Part shown: one piece after another, positions 15,546 to 25,157 of the stretch | Numbering within the stretch: position 1 is the first letter of the stretch | Layout of the letters: the number at the start of each line of letters is the position of its first letter | NCBI GenBank assembly: GCA_030824175.1 | Contig: JAVBYH010000418.1 | Span: forward strand, 1-29,831 | DNA: 29,831 nt | Reading direction: 5' to 3' | DNA from: Bacteroidota bacterium | GTDB taxonomy: Bacteria; Bacteroidota; Ignavibacteria; UBA10030; UBA8401 | The notes under the pieces: generated by a model | What the model was told of the DNA's origin: nothing | Seen by the model: only the letters and a program-made list of their open reading frames with translations | Database searches by the model: none | Program-made: the position numbers and the translations under genes

Positions 15546-16184
15546 CTACCGGATTGCAACATATCCGTCGTTCACGATGATCGTGTCGATTCGGTTCTTG
15601 TCGTTCAGCAGCGGAAGCATCAGCTCGAAATGCCGGATGAGGAACCGGAGACGGGTGTTTTCCGAGGTCATCGTGAGGAAGAGCTGGCGCTGCACCATTT
15701 CAAGACCGGCCTTCTGCACCATGACAAACGAGAGGCAGGAGCTGTCGGGAAATGCCTCAAGAGACTGTACAGTTCCCTTGAACGCGATCGTCACGAACTT
15801 GTTGTATAATGAGGCCGCTTCATCCACGAGCGCATGGTCCACCATTTCCGTCGCGTCGTCATAGTACGAGATGCTGCCGATTGAGTACGCGTGCCGGGTG
15901 TCTGCAAATCCGTGGAGGGTGTAGCGGCGGGCCCCTTCCACGACGATCTCCATGGTGCCGTCCGCATGCCGCTCCAGGACCTCCACCACGCGCGCAACGC
16001 ACCCGATGGAGCGGATCTTGTTCTCGTACATGAGGTTGATGCCGAATGCCGAGTTCGCCGCAATGCACTCGTTGATGAGCAGCTTATAGCGCTCTTCGAA
16101 GATGTGAAGCGGGAGCCGCGATCCGGGAAACATCACGACAGACAACGGGAAGAGCGGCAAGAGTGTCCGTTGGGAACTGGGCAT
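15546..16184 (-). CDS. Stand-alone LON peptidase substrate-binding (N-terminal) domain protein
   Basis: LPLFPL.VVMFPG..LPLHIFEERY...GCVARV...VVEG..R. No AAA+ or protease domain. Start moved to ATG 16184. Confidence 0.85.
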   Translation of the reverse strand: MPSSQRTLLPLFPLSVVMFPGSRLPLHIFEERYKLLINECIAANSAFGINLMYENKIRSIGCVARVVEVLERHADGTMEIVVEGARRYTLHGFADTRHAYSIGSISYYDDATEMVDHALVDEAASLYNKFVTIAFKGTVQSLEAFPDSSCLSFVMVQKAGLEMVQRQLFLTMTSENTRLRFLIRHFELMLPLLNDKNRIDTIIVNDGYVAIR

Positions 16185-16229
16185 AGGCAGATGGAGTGCA
16201 TCGTGTTTGTGAACACAGCGCGTGCAGCG

Positions 16230-16259
16230 GAGGGCCCGTACGTGATGCACGGGCCCCTC
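16230..16259. other. GC-rich stem-loop between sodA and the LON-N gene, no T tract
   Basis: GGGCCCGT...ACGGGCCC inverted repeat. Could be a stabilising or processing hairpin rather than a terminator. Confidence 0.45.
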
Positions 16260-16266
16260 ACCGCGA

Positions 16267-16878
16267 TTATTTCGACGCCATCTCGAAGCGTTCAACGACA
16301 TCGTTCCAGTTGACGACGTTCCAGAACGCGCCGAGGTAATCGGCCCGGCGATTCTGATATTTCAGATAATATGCGTGTTCCCACACGTCCACCGTCAGGA
16401 GCGGAACATGGCCGACTGAGAGCGGCGTGTCCTGGTTTGCTGTCGATGTGATGGCCAGCTTGCCGCCGCCATCGAGGATGAGCCATGCCCAGCCCGACCC
16501 GAATCGGCCGAGGCCGGCCTTCGTCAGTTGGTCCTTCAATCCGTCGAACGATTGGAATTCTTTCTTCACGGCATCGGCGAATGCGCCCGTCGGAAGCGGG
16601 ACGTCCTTTTTTAGCTGTTCCCAGAACATGTTGTGGTTTACGACACCGCCGCCGTTGTTGCGCACCGCCGTCTGTACCGCTTCGGGAAGCGACTGGAGAT
16701 CGGAGATCAATTCGACCGGCGACTTCGCCTGAAGCTCGGGATAATTGGTGACGGCATTGTTCAGGTTCGTTACATACGTCTGGTGATGCTTGTCGTGATG
16801 GATCTCCATCGTCTTCGCATCTATGAACGGTTCGAGTGCGTCGAACGCGTAGCCGAGGGGTTGAAGAGTGTATGCCAT
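16267..16878 (-). CDS. sodA: Fe/Mn superoxide dismutase with Mn-type signature
   Basis: HHDKHH, NNGGG..NH, NQD, DVWEHAYY. Confidence 0.92.
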   Translation of the reverse strand: MAYTLQPLGYAFDALEPFIDAKTMEIHHDKHHQTYVTNLNNAVTNYPELQAKSPVELISDLQSLPEAVQTAVRNNGGGVVNHNMFWEQLKKDVPLPTGAFADAVKKEFQSFDGLKDQLTKAGLGRFGSGWAWLILDGGGKLAITSTANQDTPLSVGHVPLLTVDVWEHAYYLKYQNRRADYLGAFWNVVNWNDVVERFEMASK

Positions 16879-16915
16879 GAGACTTGATCCTTATGTTTGA
16901 TGATTGATTGGGTAG

Positions 16916-17248
16916 TTACATATTCAGTGCGAGCTTCGCGGCTTCGGTCATCATGCTCGGGTCCCAGCGGGGCTCCCAAACGACCGAAACGTTGGCCTGC
17001 GTGATACCTTTTACCGTCTCCACCTTCTCCTTGATCTCCGGAGGCAGGCTTTGGGCGGCGGGACACATCGGTGAAGTGAGCGTCATCGTGATGTCGGCGA
17101 CGCCGTTCGGCGCGATATCAACTGTATACACAAGTCCGAGCTCGTAAATATCGACCGGAATCTCCGGATCATACACCGTCCTGAGCGTGTTGACGACCTC
17201 TTCCTTCAGCACGATGAGTTCAAATGAATTGTGCAACATTGTGTCCAT
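16916..17248 (-). CDS. sufT: SufT / DUF59 Fe-S maturation protein
   Basis: YDPEIPVDIYELGLVY...TLTSPMCP (DPE...T-x3-C). Start moved to ATG 17248 (AAGGGA RBS). Confidence 0.88.
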   Translation of the reverse strand: MDTMLHNSFELIVLKEEVVNTLRTVYDPEIPVDIYELGLVYTVDIAPNGVADITMTLTSPMCPAAQSLPPEIKEKVETVKGITQANVSVVWEPRWDPSMMTEAAKLALNM

Positions 17249-17258
17249 TGCCGTTCCC

Positions 17259-17732
17259 TTATTCGGTTGTATCTGATGTAACAATAGTTTTCGGAGAATC
17301 GTTCATTTCGTGCAGCACGGAATGCATGGCATGCCAGGCCAGGCTCGCGCACTTGATGCGTGCCGGAAATTCCGCGACGCCGGCCAGCGCGCCGAGAGAT
17401 CCGAGGTCTTCCACGTCCGGATCCGGCCCCATCTTCCCCGTGACGACGGCGTGAAATTTCTGGAAGAGGCTTTCGACTTCCTCCACGGTGGCCCCCTTGA
17501 TGGCCGATGTCATCATCGACGCCGATGCCTTCGAGATCGCACATCCCGCGCCCTGGAATGAGGCGTCGGCGATCCGATTGTCTTTCACGTTGAGATAGAT
17601 CGTGTAATGATCTCCGCACAACGGATTATACCCTTCCACTGTCTTGTCCGCATGCTCGATCGTCCGGAAGTTTCGGGGACTCTTGTTGTGTTCCAGTATC
17701 AGCTGCTGGTACAGTTCATTGATGGCGCTCAT
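17259..17732 (-). CDS. sufU: SufU (Zn-dependent sulfur acceptor, NifU-N family)
   Basis: NPLCGD, GCAIS, PARIKCA. Lacks the IscU LPPVK..CH motif; follows sufS. Confidence 0.9.
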   Translation of the reverse strand: MSAINELYQQLILEHNKSPRNFRTIEHADKTVEGYNPLCGDHYTIYLNVKDNRIADASFQGAGCAISKASASMMTSAIKGATVEEVESLFQKFHAVVTGKMGPDPDVEDLGSLGALAGVAEFPARIKCASLAWHAMHSVLHEMNDSPKTIVTSDTTE

Positions 17733-19000
17733 GCGTGGAAGATCTCCTTCACTTTTGCGATGCCCCGGCCGAGCGCATCGAGCTCTTCCTTCGTGTTGTA
17801 AAATGCCAGCGACGCCCGCGCGGTGGCCGGTATGCCGAACCGCTTCATGACGGGCTGCGTGCAGTGGTGTCCGGTCCGGATGGCGATGCCTTCCTGGTCC
17901 AGGATCGTTCCGATGTCGTGGGGATGCACGTGTTCCATGACGAAGGAAAGTACGCCCGCCTTCTCCCTGGCCGTGCCGACGAGGCGCACGCCGTCGATCG
18001 CCGAGAGGAGCGTTGTGCCGTAGGCGAGCAATTCGCGTTCGTACTCCTCCACCTCTTCGAAACCGACGCGCCGCACGTAATCGATCGCCACACCGAGACC
18101 CACCACGCCGGCGATGTTCCCCGTGCCGGCTTCGAATTTATACGGCAGGGCGTTGTATGTGGTTTTTTCGAATGTGACGGATTCGATCATGTCGCCGCCG
18201 CCCTGGTACGGATCCATACGGTCCAGGATCTCGGCCTTGCCATAGAGCGCCCCTACACCCGTGGGCGCAAACACCTTGTGCCCCGAGAATGCGAAGAAAT
18301 CACAATCGAGGTCCCTCACGTCGATCTTCATATGCGAGACAGCCTGCGCCCCGTCGACGAGCACGGGCACGCCGAGCGCATGCGCGCTCTTGATGATGTC
18401 TTTCACGGGATTGACGGTACCGAGCGAGTTCGAGACCATCACAACGGACACGAACTTCGTTTTCGGCGACAGCATCTTCTCGTACTCGTCCATGAGGAGT
18501 TCCCCCTCGTCGTTCATCGGGATGACGCGCAGCACGGCTTTCTTCTCGGCGCAGACCATCTGCCACGGCACGATGTTGGAATGGTGCTCCATCGCCGAGA
18601 TGATCACTTCATCCCCCTCCGCAAGAAATTTCCTGCCGTACCCGTGAGCCACAAGATTGATCGCCTCGGTCGCGCCGCGGACGAAGATGATCTCATGGTT
18701 GTCGGCCGCATTCACGAAATTCTTCACCTTGCCGCGGGCTTTTTCATATTCGAACGTGGCCACCTCGCTCAGGTAATGGACGCCGCGATGAATGTTCGCA
18801 TTCTGCGAATGGTAATACCGCTGGTCCGCGTCGATCACGTGAAGGGGCTTCTGCGTCGTTGCGGCGTTGTCGAGATACACGAGGGGCTTGCCGTGCACAA
18901 GCGTGTGAAGGATGGGAAAATCCTCGCGGATGCGTTCGATATCGAAGCGCACGCGCTTGTCGACATCCATCATCATTGCGCTGTCATTCTTTTTCATCAT
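17729..19000 (-). CDS. sufS: Cysteine desulfurase, group II
   Basis: YLDNAATTQKP, FSGHKVF (PLP Lys), RTGHHC group II signature. Start ATG 19000 or 18976. Confidence 0.95.
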   Translation of the reverse strand: MMKKNDSAMMMDVDKRVRFDIERIREDFPILHTLVHGKPLVYLDNAATTQKPLHVIDADQRYYHSQNANIHRGVHYLSEVATFEYEKARGKVKNFVNAADNHEIIFVRGATEAINLVAHGYGRKFLAEGDEVIISAMEHHSNIVPWQMVCAEKKAVLRVIPMNDEGELLMDEYEKMLSPKTKFVSVVMVSNSLGTVNPVKDIIKSAHALGVPVLVDGAQAVSHMKIDVRDLDCDFFAFSGHKVFAPTGVGALYGKAEILDRMDPYQGGGDMIESVTFEKTTYNALPYKFEAGTGNIAGVVGLGVAIDYVRRVGFEEVEEYERELLAYGTTLLSAIDGVRLVGTAREKAGVLSFVMEHVHPHDIGTILDQEGIAIRTGHHCTQPVMKRFGIPATARASLAFYNTKEELDALGRGIAKVKEIFHA

Positions 19001-20392
19001 GCTTCCCGCTGTGGACGATTTCAGGGATCTCGTTGCCGAGCTTTTTCCGGAGCTGTGATACGACCAACGCATCCACCATGCTCCGCGACGCCGCATGATC
19101 GATCTTCTCCGTCACCTCGGCGGCAAAGCCGATCGTGACGATGCCGCGAGCCGTCGCTCCGCCGATGCCGCGGCTCTTCAGATAAAACACGAGTGTTTCG
19201 TTCATGCCGCCCACCGTCGCCCCGTGCGTGCATTTCACGTCGTCGGCGAAGATCTCGAGCTGCGGCTGCGTGTCGACCGACGCCGTCTCGGACAACATCA
19301 GGTTGCGGTTCGTCTGCTTCGAATCCGTCTTCTGCGCGATGGCGTCCACGTACACCTTACCCGTATAGACCGCGCGGGCGCTTCCGTCCAGGATGCCCTT
19401 GAAGAGCTCATGGCTCGTGCACTCGGGGACCTTGTGGTGAATGAATGTGTGGTGGTCGGTGAGCTGTGTGCCGTCGGCCATGTACAGCCCGTTCACGTTC
19501 ACGTCCGCCTTCTCGCCTTCGAGCGCGACGCTGATCTCGGAGCGCGAAATTGCGCCGCCCATGGCAAGCGAGAACATATTGAGCCGGCTCTCCGCATGCT
19601 GCTCGCCGGAGACCGTGTGCATGTGGAATGCTCCGACATGTTCGTTTTGGATCTTGACATAATCGATGCTGCTGTTGGCCGCCAGCACGATCTCCGTGAC
19701 GGCATTCGTGAACGAGGCGCGAGCGCTCATCGAGATGAAACTTTCAATGACCGTCGCCGAGGAGTGTTTCTCCGCGGTAACGATGAGGCGCGGATACGAG
19801 GCGCGCGCGGGCTCGTCGTCCGTCTGCACGGACACATTCAGCACGTGGATCGGCGTATCGATCGTGATGCCCTCCGGTATCTGCACGAAGAGCCCGTCCG
19901 ACAGGAACGCCGTGTTCAACGCCGCAAAGGCGTTCGTGCGCATGTCGGCATGACGCGCGCAATGCCGCTGGACGTCGGCGTTGTCCCGCGCCTCCGCCGA
20001 GGCCAGGTTGAACACTTCAACATTCGCCGAGAAGTTGACGGCCGAGAGCGACGGCGAAAAATGACCGTTCACGAAGACAAACCGGTGCTCGTCCTTCTGG
20101 ATCGTGTAACGCTCGAGGCGTGCGCCTGTGAGCTCGGGGTAGTCCCTTTTCGGCGAGACGGCGAAGGCCTGCTTCGCGAGTGGAGCGATGTTCGTGAAGC
20201 GCCAGTCCTCCCTGTCCTGCCCCGGAAGGCCGAGCTCCCCAAATGACGCAATCCCCGCGCTGCGGAGGTGCTTCATCCATGCCGGCGATGCGGAGGCTCC
20301 GTTGCCCTCGAACCGCCGGTGGTCGTTTATGTACGGCGTCTGTGCTGTTTCGTGTGCCATGCTGTCAATATCCTTGTGTGAGTGCGGTGCCA

Positions 20393-20393
<1 letters not shown>
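18984..20393 (-). CDS. sufD: Fe-S assembly protein SufD
   Basis: FAALNTAF, beta-helix repeats, PQLEIFADDVKCTHGAT. Start 20393 (TGATG coupling) or 20360. Confidence 0.93.
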
Positions 20394-21157
<764 letters not shown>

Positions 21158-21190
21158 TGAGGTTCTCCGTTGTTCAATAGTAATGTGTGC

Positions 21191-22624
21191 TTAACCGACG
21201 CTGCCCTCGAGCGAGACGCCGAGCAGCTTTTGCGCCTCGACGGCGAATTCCATGGGAAGGTTCTTGAAGACGGCCTTTGCGAATCCGTTCACGATCATCG
21301 AGATGGCGTTCTCACCGGTGATGCCGCGCTGCTTGCAGTAGAAGAGCTGGTCCTCGCCGATCTTCGAGGTGGACGCCTCGTGCTCGACGCTCGAGCTCGT
21401 GTTCTTCACCTCGATGTACGGGAACGTGTTCGCGCTGCACTGGTTGCCGAGCAGCATCGAATCGCACTGCGTGTAGTTCCTCGCGTTCGCCGCGTTCGGG
21501 CCGACCTTCACAAGACCGCGGTACGTGTTGTGCCCGCGGCCGGCCGAGATGCCTTTCGAGATGATCGTGCTCTTCGTGTTCCTGCCGATGTGTATCATCT
21601 TCGTGCCCGTGTCGGCCTGCTGGCGGTTGTTCACCACGGCGACAGAGTAGAACTCGCCGACGGAATTGTCGCCGAGCAGGATCACCGACGGGTATTTCCA
21701 TGTGATCGACGAGCCGGTCTCGACCTGTGTCCACGAGATCTTCGCGTTGTCGCCGGCGCACTTGCCGCGCTTCGTGACGAAGTTGTAGATGCCGCCCTTG
21801 CCGTCCTTGTCGCCGGCATACCAGTTCTGCACCGTCGAATATTTGATCTCGGCATCCTTCGCCGCCACGAGCTCGACCACTGCCGCGTGAAGCTGGTTCT
21901 CGTCTCTCATCGGCGCGGTGCATCCCTCGAGATAGCTCACGTACGCGCCCTCTTCGGCGACAATGAGCGTGCGCTCGAACTGCCCCGTGTTCAGCGCGTT
22001 GATGCGGAAGTACGTCGAGAGTTCCATCGGGCACCGGACACCCTTCGGGATGTAGCAGAACGAGCCGTCGCTGAACACGGCCGAATTCAGCGCGGCGAAA
22101 TAATTGTCCGTTGACGGTACAACCGAACCCAGATACTTTTTTATCAGTTCCGGATGCTCCTTCACCGCATCCGAGAAGGAACAGAAGATGATGCCGACTT
22201 TCGAGAGGGATTCCTTGAACGTCGTCGCGACAGAGACGCTGTCGAACACCGCGTCCACCGCCACACCGCTCATGCGCTTCTGCTCTGTGAGCGAGATGCC
22301 GAGCTTCTCGTACGTCTCACGCAGCTTCGGATCCACCTCGTCGAGACTGTTGATCGTCTTCGGCGCCTTCGGCGCGGAATAATACACCATCGACTGGTAG
22401 TCGATCGGCGGGTACGTCACGTTCTCCCAGTTCGGCTCCTTCATCGTCAGCCAGTGGCGGTACGCCTTCAGCCGCCATTCGAGCATGAACGGAGGCTCGC
22501 CCTTCTTCTCGGAGATCAGGCGCACGACATCTTCGCTTAATCCCGCCGGGATCGAATCCGATTCGATGTCCGTGACGAAACCGTACTTATATTCCTTGTT
22601 GACAAGCTCTTCCATTTCCTGCAT
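21191..22624 (-). CDS. sufB: Fe-S assembly protein SufB
   Basis: [32 protein letters not shown]; normal length, no intein. Confidence 0.97.
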
Positions 22625-22651
22625 AACATCTCCATGATGGCTGTAATGATT

Positions 22652-23020
22652 CTAGACGCCGAACGAACTTCCGCACCCGCAGCTCTTCGTCGCCTGCGGA
22701 TTGTTAAAGACGAAACCCCGCCCGTTCAGTCCGTCGCTGAAATCAAGCGTCGTGCCCGACAAGTAGAACATGCTTTTCTGGTCGATGAATACCGTGACGC
22801 CGTTTTTCTCGAGCACGATGTCACGCTCGGTCGATTTTTCATCGAACGCAAGCACATACGTCAGTCCCGAGCATCCGCCGCCCTTCACTCCGAGTCGGAG
22901 GCCGTGCGTGTCGGGAATCTTGTTCTCACTCTTGATGCGGCGCACTTCGATGGCGGCTTTTTCCGTCAACGTGATATCGTCTTCGGTCACCGGGGTCTGC
23001 TGAATTTCGATCGGATCCAT
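22652..23020 (-). CDS. iscA: A-type Fe-S carrier (HesB/IscA/SufA)
   Basis: GGCSG and CGCGSSF motifs. Start moved to ATG 23020 (AAGGAG RBS). Confidence 0.93.
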   Translation of the reverse strand: MDPIEIQQTPVTEDDITLTEKAAIEVRRIKSENKIPDTHGLRLGVKGGGCSGLTYVLAFDEKSTERDIVLEKNGVTVFIDQKSMFYLSGTTLDFSDGLNGRGFVFNNPQATKSCGCGSSFGV

Positions 23021-23045
23021 AACTCTCCTTGTGGTAATGTGGTGC

Positions 23046-23348
23046 TTATTTTTGAACTGCAGGCTGAACTGTCTTGGGTGTCGTGAATTCGGGATATGTG
23101 ACGACCCATCCCTGTGTGTTGACCCTGCGAAACATGTTCCGCTTCTCAAAATTTGCGATCACCTCGTGCGTAATCGCCTCGGCGGCAGTGAAGCCGACGA
23201 CAACATTGCGCTTGGCGAGATACTGCGTCACGCCGTACATGAGGTCGCGGTAGAAGACGTTGGACATGTGATACACCGGGAACTTCGTTCGCAGGTAATT
23301 GAGAAATTCGATCGGGCTGTTGGTGATGATTTGAACATGTGCGGTCAT
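23046..23348 (-). CDS. Uncharacterised 100-aa protein inside the Fe-S operon
   Basis: GC3-rich coding pattern, ATGA overlap with the iscS stop, fills the gap before iscA. No family recognised. Confidence 0.8.
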   Translation of the reverse strand: MTAHVQIITNSPIEFLNYLRTKFPVYHMSNVFYRDLMYGVTQYLAKRNVVVGFTAAEAITHEVIANFEKRNMFRRVNTQGWVVTYPEFTTPKTVQPAVQK

Positions 23349-24556
23349 GAAAGATCCTTTGTTGATGGTTGCCGCTCCGCGAGGGAGCGCTGGTTATAGA
23401 TGAACTCTGTGATGCGTCTGCCCGTATACTCGATCTCGGCGTCCGTGGTGAAGCGCCCGATGCCGAAGCGGAGCGTGGACTCTGCCTGGTGGCGGCTCAG
23501 GCCGATGGCCCGAAGCACGTGAGAATATTCTTCCGTCGCGGCGTCCTCGGAGGTGCATGCGCTTCCGGTTGAGATCGCGATTTCGCGGATCTCCGTCAGG
23601 ACGTCCTTCGAGACGATCCCGGCGAGCGTCACATTGAGATTGTTCGGAAGCCTGTTCGTTTCGTCGCCGTTGACGCGCACACCGCCGGCGGCAGCGAGGT
23701 GCGCCTGCAGCTCGTCGCGCATGCGCGCGATGCGTTTGTGTTCCGGCTGCCCGAGCTGCACCGCGAGCACCGCGGCTTCGCTGAAGCCCACGATGCCAGG
23801 AATGTTCAGCGTCCCCGAGCGCAGCCCGAATTCGTGGCCGCCGCCGTCCATCTGCGGCGCGATCCGCACACCGTTCCTGTTGCGGCGCAGAAACAAGCCG
23901 CCGACGCCCTTCGGACCGTAGAGCTTGTGCGCCGAAAACGACATCGCGTCGATGCGCATCGCCTTCACGTCGATCGCCACTTTCCCGTAGGCCTGCGATG
24001 CGTCGGTATGAAAAATGATGCCGCGCTCACTGCACATCCTGCCGATCGCTCCGAGCGGAGCGACGGTGCCGATCTCGTTGTTGGCCGCCATGATCGATAC
24101 GAGAATCGTCCGGTCGGTGAGCGCGCGCTCCAACTCGTCGAGATCGATGCGCCCGTGTGCGTCAACATCCAGCGTCGTCACGCTGAAACCGCACGTCCGC
24201 AGCGCGGCGCACGTGTCGAGCACGGAGCGGTGTTCGGTCGCACAGGTGACGATATGCGTGCCTTTGCCGCTGTATGCCTCAGCAATGCCCTTCAAGGCAA
24301 GATTGTTGGACTCTGTGGCGCCGCTCGTGAAGATGATCTCGTTTGACTCGGCATTCATCGAACCGGCGATGGTCCGCCGCGCCAATTCGGCAGCCTCTTT
24401 GGCATGCCACCCGTACCGATGCTCCTTGCTCGATGCGTTGCCGTACTGCTCCGCAAAATACGGCAGCATCGCCTCGATCACGCGGGGATCCACACGCGTC
24501 GTCGAATGATTGTCGAGATAGATCGGAAAATGAATGTCGTTTGTGTGCGTTGTCAT
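23345..24556 (-). CDS. iscS: Cysteine desulfurase, group I (IscS/NifS-like)
   Basis: FTSGATESNN, TEH, SAHKLYGPKG (PLP Lys), RSGT, TGSACTS catalytic Cys. Confidence 0.92.
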   Translation of the reverse strand: MTTHTNDIHFPIYLDNHSTTRVDPRVIEAMLPYFAEQYGNASSKEHRYGWHAKEAAELARRTIAGSMNAESNEIIFTSGATESNNLALKGIAEAYSGKGTHIVTCATEHRSVLDTCAALRTCGFSVTTLDVDAHGRIDLDELERALTDRTILVSIMAANNEIGTVAPLGAIGRMCSERGIIFHTDASQAYGKVAIDVKAMRIDAMSFSAHKLYGPKGVGGLFLRRNRNGVRIAPQMDGGGHEFGLRSGTLNIPGIVGFSEAAVLAVQLGQPEHKRIARMRDELQAHLAAAGGVRVNGDETNRLPNNLNVTLAGIVSKDVLTEIREIAISTGSACTSEDAATEEYSHVLRAIGLSRHQAESTLRFGIGRFTTDAEIEYTGRRITEFIYNQRSLAERQPSTKDLS

Positions 24557-24565
24557 AGCCGTGTG

Positions 24566-24967
24566 TTATACGATCTCCGACACCTTCATCGTGTTGAACA
24601 CCTGGTGAAGGTTATGTTGGATCTTCCCCAGCGGATTCTTTATCGTGCAATTGTCGTAGATCGAACAGATGCCGTCATCGGCCGTCAAACATTGTACGAT
24701 GCCCGCCGACGCGGCGCCTTCGATCGCGTCGATGACGTTTGTGATCGAGATATCCGCCGCCCGTCGGGCCAATGTGTATCCCCCGTTCATGCCCTGCTGC
24801 GACACGATGAGACCCGCCTTCGCCAGCTTCTGCAGCACCTTCGCAACAAGGTCGTGCGATATCGCATACCGGTCGGAGATCTCCTTCGCAGAAGAAACGG
24901 ACTGCGCCGCGGCGATGTGCCGCATTGCGATGAGACCATATTCGACTTTTTTCGATAATTTCAGCAT
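24566..24967 (-). CDS. Rrf2 family Fe-S-sensing regulator (SUF-associated Rrf2 type)
   Basis: GGYTLAR wing; C93-x7-C101-x5-C107. Lacks the residues equivalent to IscR E43 and H107. Confidence 0.9.
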   Translation of the reverse strand: MLKLSKKVEYGLIAMRHIAAAQSVSSAKEISDRYAISHDLVAKVLQKLAKAGLIVSQQGMNGGYTLARRAADISITNVIDAIEGAASAGIVQCLTADDGICSIYDNCTIKNPLGKIQHNLHQVFNTMKVSEIV

Positions 24968-24973
24968 CGGGAA

Positions 24974-24994
24974 CTCGGACTAAAACGGTCCTAT
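24974..24994. promoter_or_regulatory. Putative Rrf2 autoregulatory operator (IscR type-1-like)
   Basis: GGAC-N7-GTCC palindrome at 24977-24991. Core GACTAAAACGGTC is one mismatch from the IscR type-1 core GACTRWWWYAGTC, 9 nt upstream of the regulator ATG. Confidence 0.65.
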
Positions 24995-25157
24995 TTATGG
25001 GTAAAAAAATATTTGTTTCTCTTCAGTTTATAACAGGGCTGTGTTCCAAATAGTTTCGATCGCCGCCATAAAAGTACGAATTATTTCAATGTGTTCAAAA
25101 TACTTTATGAGAACTGCATACTTTTCACTAACAGCATGCCCCCAGACTGCCATGCGA

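Follow-up and report, generated by a model that had tools for sequence, protein, structure and literature searches.

A family of cysteine-free winged-helix proteins encoded in iron-sulfur cluster assembly loci of Ignavibacteria

Introduction

Few essential pathways are as well studied as iron-sulfur (Fe-S) cluster assembly, yet small accessory proteins such as IscX, CyaY, SufT and others are the least understood part of it. Almost all knowledge about these accessory proteins comes from Proteobacteria and Firmicutes. The fold of one of them, IscX, is described as a modified winged helix. IscX binds the cysteine desulfurase IscS and modulates desulfurase activity and cluster formation (PMC8593673). 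Here we analyze a protein that we call X, a working name for the 100-amino-acid (aa) product of the open reading frame (ORF) at 23046-23348 (minus strand, stop codon within the coordinates) of contig JAVBYH010000418.1, from a Bacteroidota bacterium of the class Ignavibacteria (assembly GCA_030824175.1). The whole stretch of DNA that was analyzed, 29,831 nucleotides (nt) long, is referred to as the window. X founds an undescribed, Cys-free family of winged-helix proteins that can be assigned to no named family. We propose, with about as much doubt as confidence, that it serves Fe-S assembly as a protein-binding accessory or modulator subunit, acting at the step of IscS and the A-type carrier. 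We favor this role because of the recurrent Fe-S context, the lack of Cys, the predicted winged-helix fold, a conserved patch and the precedent of DsrD and IscX.

Like IscX, X is small, Cys-poor and encoded in Fe-S operons. IscX is acidic and 66 aa long, whereas X is basic in the window and belongs to a family of about 90-100 aa with an extra N-terminal helix. Furthermore, IscX is encoded at the 3' end of isc operons, whereas X follows right after iscS or the gene of an Rrf2-family regulator. Homology to IscX was ruled out: the X family profile aligned with E. coli IscX at an hhalign probability of 0.26%, none of 78 members matched PF04384, and the operon of the remote member P0131 encodes both X and a true IscX (PF04384). 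Since the two occur in the same operon, X is no stand-in for IscX. CyaY (frataxin, PF01491) is an alpha/beta sandwich with an acidic ridge, whereas X is a predicted winged helix, basic and without a Pfam match.

By analogy, the best mechanistic precedent for X is probably DsrD. This small, Cys-less winged-helix protein is encoded beside its enzyme and was long presumed to bind DNA (PMC8794893). It does so only unspecifically, acts as an allosteric activator of DsrAB and, in one species, forms a fusion protein with this enzyme (PMC8794893). DsrD (PF08679) belongs to the pathway of dissimilatory sulfite reduction, and X has no Pfam match to it; a DsrD-containing cluster was a weak feature-space neighbor of X, with a score of 0.77 that lies below the counting level.

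Results

The gene encoding X is conserved and under purifying selection

The gene and its junction with the upstream desulfurase gene are as follows.

23046..23348, minus strand: gene of X, predicted Cys-free winged-helix protein, 100 aa plus stop (ORF and translation, AlphaFold2 (AF2) model, homologues, ratio of non-synonymous to synonymous substitutions (dN/dS))
23345..23348, minus strand: ATGA overlap of the iscS stop and the X start, a translational coupling signal (read from the sequence)

An initial annotation of this locus had placed the start of a basic, Cys-free protein inside the iscS stop codon, and direct reading of the sequence agrees. The ATG of X occupies 23348-23346 and the TGA of the desulfurase gene 23347-23345, so that two bases are common to both codons. 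Close relatives have the identical 4-nt overlap; in more distant relatives the two genes do not overlap and are separated by gaps of 30-130 nt. The product contains no Cys and 11 Lys and Arg versus 6 Asp and Glu, giving the predicted net charge of +5 and a pI of 9.8.

A word-indexed search returned 18 close homologues with 69-88% identity, all annotated as "hypothetical". Exhaustive phmmer searching of 1.84 billion representatives, in which family clusters were defined at 50% identity, extended the family to 145 clusters at E<=1e-3, 63 of them at E<=1e-10. X is encoded in 38 of the 41 genomes of the window's order, with identities down to 27-36%. Pairwise dN/dS against three relatives was 0.05-0.2, with dS saturated, and the gene is under purifying selection. 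Because of the 145 homologous clusters, the homologues in 38 of 41 order genomes and the low dN/dS, X is a real gene and no chance ORF.

The suggestion that the protein is lineage-specific was likewise borne out. The family profile matched 52 of 301 sampled genomes of the phylum, all 52 of them of the class Ignavibacteria, and no match was obtained in any other class of the phylum among these 301 genomes. A pattern scan with one genome per GTDB species yielded 382 stretches encoding an X relative, corresponding to about 380 species genomes. The best 80 of the 382 come from metagenome-assembled genomes titled Ignavibacteria, Ignavibacteriales or Bacteroidota, a few of these labels being evidently loose. 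Outside Ignavibacteria, remote metagenomic members occur in true ISC operons. The window DNA itself was found only in freshwater-sediment metagenome runs and, as a small share, in one wetland run; no RNA dataset was listed for the stretch, which has no bearing on expression.

X is predicted to adopt a winged-helix fold without a named relative

Neither the single protein and its 78 relatives nor the 78-member profile matched any entry of Pfam, NCBIfam or the PDB sequences. X alone had no Pfam match at E<=1, and the sole weak family match was DUF6974, at 17.6 bits versus a cut-off of 26 and hence sub-threshold. The AF2 model, calculated from a 78-row alignment, reached a mean pLDDT of 89.9 and a pTM of 0.77. 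It contains helices at residues 3-9, 12-22, 33-46 and 53-69 and strands at 30-32, 73-77 and 80-83, and is of low confidence in the C-terminal tail from about residue 90. According to this model X is a canonical winged helix (H1-S1-H2-H3-S2-wing-S3) with an extra N-terminal helix at residues 3-9. The initial annotation had read a helix-strand-helix-helix-strand-strand pattern and a winged-helix-like protein from the sequence by eye; the model matches this pattern, with the one N-terminal helix in addition.

Structure searches agreed with the fold and gave no confident match to an unrelated known family. Foldseek against the PDB returned nothing at E<=1e-3, with Fur, the JetA kleisin, the cullin WHB domain, TubR and ROQ in the top rows. 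Among AFDB clusters and in the ESM Atlas only uncharacterized relatives of X were recovered (TM 0.79-0.88), and the AFDB Swiss-Prot models listed were Fur, FoxO, TubR and MCM, all at E>0.04. VIA-align against 48,161 chains gave generic winged-helix domains, and X superposes on solved winged-helix domains. The structural neighbors are thus all winged-helix proteins, many of them protein-binding, e.g., cullin WHB and the MukF/JetA kleisins. IscX, DsrD and FeoC were not among the structure-search lists, an absence that does not exclude them.

X is encoded near-exclusively in Fe-S loci

We collected 124 distinct X loci from relatives and remote metagenomic members, a sample weighted toward the window's own order, and mapped the Fe-S proteins of the window onto them by tblastn. 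Nearly all of the 124 are Fe-S loci, and X thus occurs near-exclusively in this context. Since the homologues are not scattered, the survey did not yield the outcome that the initial annotation had named as speaking against it. The gene directly upstream of X (n = 111) encodes IscS in 80 cases (72%), Rrf2 in 21 and NuoN in 4, with 6 other or none. Directly downstream (n = 118) we found IscA in 69 cases, SufB in 30, SufC in 9 and superoxide dismutase (SOD) in 3; four of six remaining downstream cases are tailed members whose real neighbor lies just past the distance limit. Of the loci flanked by at least 5 kb on both sides (n = 73), 62 contain Rrf2, 62 IscA, 49 IscS, 45 SufB and 37 SOD, and Rrf2 was on the strand of X in 62 of the 73.

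The architectures differ between lineages. In the window's order it is Rrf2-[IscS]-X-[IscA]-SufB/C..., with IscA otherwise at the operon end, and the close syntenic relatives have Rrf2-IscS-X-IscA-SufBCDS. Other orders of the class (20 loci) show [nuoLMN]-[Rrf2]-[IscS]-X-IscA-SOD-LON_N, where 19 loci have X-IscA-SOD, 9 have Rrf2 and 6 have IscS; LON_N comes next in 10 of the 19. Two true ISC operons of remote members read Rrf2-IscS-X-hyp-IscU-IscA-hyp-HscB-HscA (hyp, hypothetical protein) and Rrf2-IscS-X-IscU-IscA-HscB-SIS-HscA-SOD-Fdx-IscX-LON_N. Minimal loci consist of Rrf2-X-SOD or Rrf2-X-IscA-SOD-LON_N, and a bare X-IscA pair was found in a 3.2-Mb genome at the site where a relative has a full ISC operon. 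X is hence retained at loci without operon IscS, Rrf2, IscU or HscBA.

The recurrence of X-IscA-SOD raises the possibility of an oxidative-stress module, X-IscA-SOD-LON_N, in which X would cooperate with SOD or the LON-N-domain protein, for example to protect or turn over damaged Fe-S proteins, instead of serving de novo assembly. Apart from the 19 of 20 loci in other orders, SOD and LON_N also end the window's own operon, as judged from relatives, and lie near X in remote lineages too. However, SOD is within reach in only about half of the well-flanked loci (37 of 73), about 8 kb of suf genes separate it from X in the window's order, and the sequence of X holds no hint of a protease adaptor or redox function. 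We therefore regard such a role as highly improbable.

Some further features of these loci were noted. In the window's syntenic relatives IscA and SOD are separated by a SufBCD-SufS-SufU-SufT block, whose distribution would fit insertion into an older module like that of the other orders, or excision from it; this comparison was made between loci L130-L149 of other orders and window positions 15546-24967. A 129-aa protein without a Pfam domain follows IscA at two loci (L117, 8161-8550; L132, 8097-8441); its copies in an ISC-type metagenomic locus and in an Ignavibacteria-class genome share 80% identity. L117 also has a 142-aa domain-less ORF between X and IscU. In an X-less family of the class (locus L128, 2192-6262, genome G081) a glycosyltransferase-like gene lies between rrf2 and sufB, and a gene for a large membrane protein between sufB and sufC.

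Conserved residues suggest a protein-binding surface

Conservation was computed over 78 diverse members. N30, F32 and D35 are invariant, and S29 (76/78), R34 (71/78), W81 (70/78) and E57 (68/78) nearly so; P24, H27, Y38, E68, N84, Y85, P86 and F88 are also conserved. The resulting motifs, H-x-S-N-x-F-x-R-D and W-x-L-N-Y-P-E-F, map to strand 1, the first turn of helix 2 and the segment behind the wing. The most likely functional site is a surface on the sheet/helix-2 side that would bind a protein (or a ligand). Exposure, and with it the surface patch, was deduced from sequence position and helical periodicity, not from coordinates, and this weakens the reading of X as a docking protein.

The number of Cys residues is zero in most members, one in a minority and higher in a few, and no alignment column has a conserved Cys. 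Persulfide relay and cluster ligation are therefore unlikely, and we ruled out X as a sulfur or persulfide carrier of the SufE, CsdE, TusA or SufU type or as a cluster ligand. The basic charge is typical of the Ignavibacteria members only. Untailed members of this class have net charges of +2 to +9, and nearly all Ignavibacteria members have a pI of 9-10. Acidity is common among the remote members, of which many have net charges of -3 to -8 with the motif retained and about 30 a pI of 4.7-6.3.

These data bear on the question of whether X itself binds nucleic acids, either as a second regulator of the operon, as the initial annotation had considered, or as an RNA- or nucleoid-binding protein. 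The winged-helix fold with structural neighbors such as Fur, GntR-type regulators, TubR, linker histone and ROQ would be in line with this idea, as would the high pI in Ignavibacteria and Lys or Arg at wing positions 74-75. Some relatives have long Pro/Ala/Lys tails and net charges of +13 to +20, an architecture reminiscent of linker histones, and where Rrf2 is missing the X-IscA-SOD cluster begins with X, as is usual for the gene of an autoregulator. On the other hand, the exposed positions of helix 3, the would-be recognition helix (54, 55, 58, 61, 62, 65, 66 and 69), have entropies of 2.85-3.85 bits and are among the most variable of the protein. Conservation in this helix is spaced i/i+3/i+4/i+7, as for a buried face, and the conserved residues are acidic (E57, E68) or on the hydrophobic face (A56, L67). 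The variability of the exposed face argues against sequence-specific DNA reading, which is unlikely judging from these patterns. By the same periodicity, X differs from the winged helix-turn-helix regulators of the Fur, GntR, MarR and Rrf2 type in that no polar or basic residue is conserved where its recognition helix would be exposed; it also has no family match to them and no dimerization or sensor domain, and no match to any DNA-binding Pfam or NCBIfam family. Furthermore, the remote members of low pI would fit poorly, a position between iscS and iscA or iscU is unusual for a regulator, and DsrD demonstrates that this fold together with unspecific DNA affinity can mislead (PMC8794893). A function of X as nucleic-acid binder is hence quite unlikely. 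Of the second-regulator idea, the possibility is kept alive by a natural fusion to Rrf2 (see below) and made less likely by the variable helix 3.

One clade (f11, loci L135-L148) deviates from the consensus. H27 has given way to Y, F, N, K or L and Y85 to F, the protein stops shortly after the wing, without Y-P-E-F, and no IscS adjoins X. S-N-x-F-x-R-D and the adjacency to IscA are kept. This pattern fits two sub-sites for two partners, although it represents a single evolutionary event. A general link of H27 and Y85 to IscS adjacency was rejected, as the pattern comes from one clade only and IscS-less members in the window's order all keep H27 and, with one exception, Y85.

The operon around X in the window

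In the window, X is encoded near the head of an Rrf2-controlled suf operon, between a class-I desulfurase and an A-type carrier. The surrounding features are listed below.

24977..24991, no strand assigned: palindrome GGAC-N7-GTCC, candidate Rrf2 operator, about 10-25 nt upstream of the Rrf2 start codon
24566..24967, minus strand: first operon gene, encoding an Rrf2-family regulator whose cluster-ligand region has three Cys (Pfam Rrf2, 2.1e-29; NCBIfam rrf2_super above cut-off)
23345..24556, minus strand: class-I (IscS/NifS-type) cysteine desulfurase, 403 aa (Pfam Aminotran_5, 2.8e-81)
22652..23020, minus strand: A-type Fe-S carrier (IscA/SufA/ErpA family), 122 aa (Pfam Fe-S_biosyn, 8.8e-22; TIGR00049, 122 bits)
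21191-22624, minus strand: sufB (ORF; syntenic orthologs with Pfam SUFBD)
20393-21157, minus strand: sufC (ORF; syntenic orthologs with Pfam ABC_tran)
18984-20393, minus strand: sufD (ORF; syntenic orthologs with Pfam SUFBD)
17729 to about 19000, minus strand: sufS (ORF; syntenic orthologs with Pfam Aminotran_5)

The Pfam and NCBIfam matches of the neighbors corroborate the initial placement of the gene between iscS and iscA in a recognizable Fe-S operon. The desulfurase scored 480.8 bits with the NCBIfam IscS model and 420.7 bits with the NifS model, both under the equivalog cut-offs. The sufB-sufC-sufD-sufS block (17729..22624, minus strand) lies downstream of X in the same operon, and syntenic relatives continue beyond sufS with genes for SufU, a DUF59/SufT protein, Fe/Mn-SOD and a LON-N-domain protein. 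A second class-I desulfurase paralog is encoded elsewhere in the window's genome (G000, contig C251, 1305-2405) and is 41% identical to the operon IscS. Genes for IscX (PF04384) and CyaY (PF01491), which the initial annotation had described as absent from the operon, were found neither in the window's genome (71% complete) nor in four relatives, namely two complete genomes of the same genus and two further relatives.

A T-rich tract precedes the palindrome GGAC-N7-GTCC, which is probably the operator of the IscR-like Rrf2 protein. Of 98 distinct related regions upstream of Rrf2, 87 have a GAC-N7-11-GTC element in the 120 nt before the gene; in nearly all of the regions printed the spacer is N7, and among these it lies mostly at -17 to -35. 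Loci without Rrf2 showed no GAC-N7-GTC palindrome upstream of X. Two similar decamers, TTTTGAACAC and TTTGGAACAC, 51 nt apart, also occur in the intergenic region that separates rrf2 from a divergent 3-hydroxyacyl-CoA dehydrogenase gene (window 25040-25100, minus strand).

IscS, IscA or Rrf2 as partner of X

The partner of X is most probably IscS and/or the A-type carrier IscA, an assignment that we infer from gene context. Small and non-catalytic, X would be made together with the class-I desulfurase, through coupled translation in this genus, and would dock on a core Fe-S protein via its invariant surface, formed by H27, S29, N30, F32, R34, D35 and Y38 together with W81, N84, Y85, P86 and F88. 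Binding could tune the flow of sulfur or clusters between IscS and IscA. X may be an allosteric modulator or adaptor, as IscX and CyaY are on IscS or DsrD on DsrAB, without sequence kinship to any of them.

Several observations weigh against this assignment. No single neighbor of X is universal: IscS is not next to X in 28% of loci, about 15% of the well-flanked loci have no Rrf2, and IscA, although it survives most rearrangements, is absent from about 15% as well. In genomes without the operon IscS paralog, X stands directly behind Rrf2. Where the genes run Rrf2-X-SufB, the operon-type IscS (about 51% identical across the order) is absent from the genome, and the only class-I desulfurase left is the second paralog, encoded elsewhere, with 43-44% identity. 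In another family of the class X follows nuoLMN, with neither IscS nor Rrf2 adjacent. X has also been lost by clean deletion in one genus: of five species sampled, three have Rrf2-SufB with about 90 nt between the two genes, and one has Rrf2-X-SufB; this loss implies that X is not essential. Rate covariation (mirror-tree, 50 loci, controlled for SufB and SufC) gave partial r values of 0.55-0.62 among Rrf2, IscS and X. For X the value was 0.56 with Rrf2 and 0.55 with IscS, both confounded by SufB replacement. Since Rrf2 and IscS covary equally with X, rate covariation cannot pick the partner.

A further observation of this kind is a natural gene fusion. The 217-aa protein P0154 (L032, 1259-1912) joins Rrf2 and X in a single open frame, and a second copy with 99% identity (P0167) comes from another assembly. 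Such a fusion points to the regulator as partner, not to IscS or IscA. The Rrf2 domain of the fusion lacks the three Cys ligands and the X domain keeps S-N-x-F-x-R-D. The gene is flanked by a nucleoside-phosphorylase-like gene and a gene for a secreted protein, with no other Fe-S gene at the locus.

We considered accordingly that X might be a partner of the IscR-like Rrf2 protein, i.e., a co-repressor, anti-repressor or stabilizer that alters binding to GGAC-N7-GTCC. Dependence on a protein partner has a precedent in the Rrf2 protein CymR, which needs CysK. Rrf2 heads 62 of the 73 well-flanked loci, X stays directly behind it when the operon IscS is lost (21 of 111 loci), the minimal loci Rrf2-X-SOD and Rrf2-X-IscA-SOD combine the two, and the fusion was seen in two assemblies with the motif of X intact. 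However, about 15% of loci have no nearby Rrf2. This includes most of one large family, in much of which Rrf2 is not near X, the palindrome that elsewhere precedes rrf2 is missing too, and X follows nuoN. Also, the fused Rrf2 domain, without Cys ligands and at a non-Fe-S locus, may be a derived oddity, and an Rrf2 protein at the head of Fe-S operons is a general rule that implies no contact with X. Taken together, we consider Rrf2 an unlikely partner.

For the initial proposal of an IscS modulator or adaptor this means that the link to Fe-S operons stands, with X behind IscS at 80 of 111 loci, whereas specificity for IscS is doubtful, as X is kept in genomes without the operon IscS.

Tailed relatives of X

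About a fifth of the family representatives are longer than 140 aa, and three types of C-terminal extension recur; the X of the window has no tail and no LPP motif. Seven proteins (P0026, P0030, P0036, P0048, P0050, P0053 and P0054) have disordered Pro/Ala/Lys tails of 120-160 aa with net charges of +10 to +20. These tails contain 3-5 L-P-P-[LI]-x repeats, in which x is usually K and sometimes S, N, A or T, and end in a conserved L-P-P-[IL]-K/R-[SG]. One tailed example is found in genome G030, contig C30, 83008-83310 and onward. Of the remote members in ISC operons, some have repeats of an amphipathic K-[LI]-A-E-L-[QK]-A-K-M, ending in ...R-E-[AT]-G-G, and others a terminal P-P-W-[ML]-[KR]-K. 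Members with these tails of ISC-operon type are encoded at L117 6001-6636, L150 9001-9870 and L034 1419-2057.

LPPVK is the sequence of IscU that is recognized by the Hsp70 protein HscA (PMC6506825), and the IscU encoded beside a remote X carries it. The Pro/Ala/Lys tails resemble this motif, but the lysine is not in every copy. In the tailed Ignavibacteria genomes that were checked a DnaK-like Hsp70 was present, and no HscA or HscB scored above the cut-off. By analogy, X could be the head of an Fe-S factor that docks at the IscS/A-type-carrier step and whose tails, with their L-P-P-[LIV]-K arrays, recruit DnaK in trans. This would concern Ignavibacteria and related FCB bacteria with a SUF-type system lacking IscU, HscA and HscB, and the X of the window would be the tail-less core. 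We consider this proposal very unlikely; the recruitment of DnaK by tails is speculation and does not apply to the tail-less X of the window.

Discussion

What is new here is the protein family, while the role that we favor, an accessory function in Fe-S assembly, is of a known kind. If X is a minor, dispensable modulator, it will merely be one more annotated domain of unknown function. The family nevertheless occupies a constant position in the Fe-S operons of an entire class and occurs, in addition, in true ISC operons of remote relatives. Its partner, once found, would explain a hybrid system that combines a class-I desulfurase, an A-type carrier and SufBCD-SufSU and has no IscU or HscAB. 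The LPPxK-like repeats of the tailed relatives offer a testable link between SUF-type systems and Hsp70 chaperones, and X could reveal a new regulation of desulfurases or A-type carriers.

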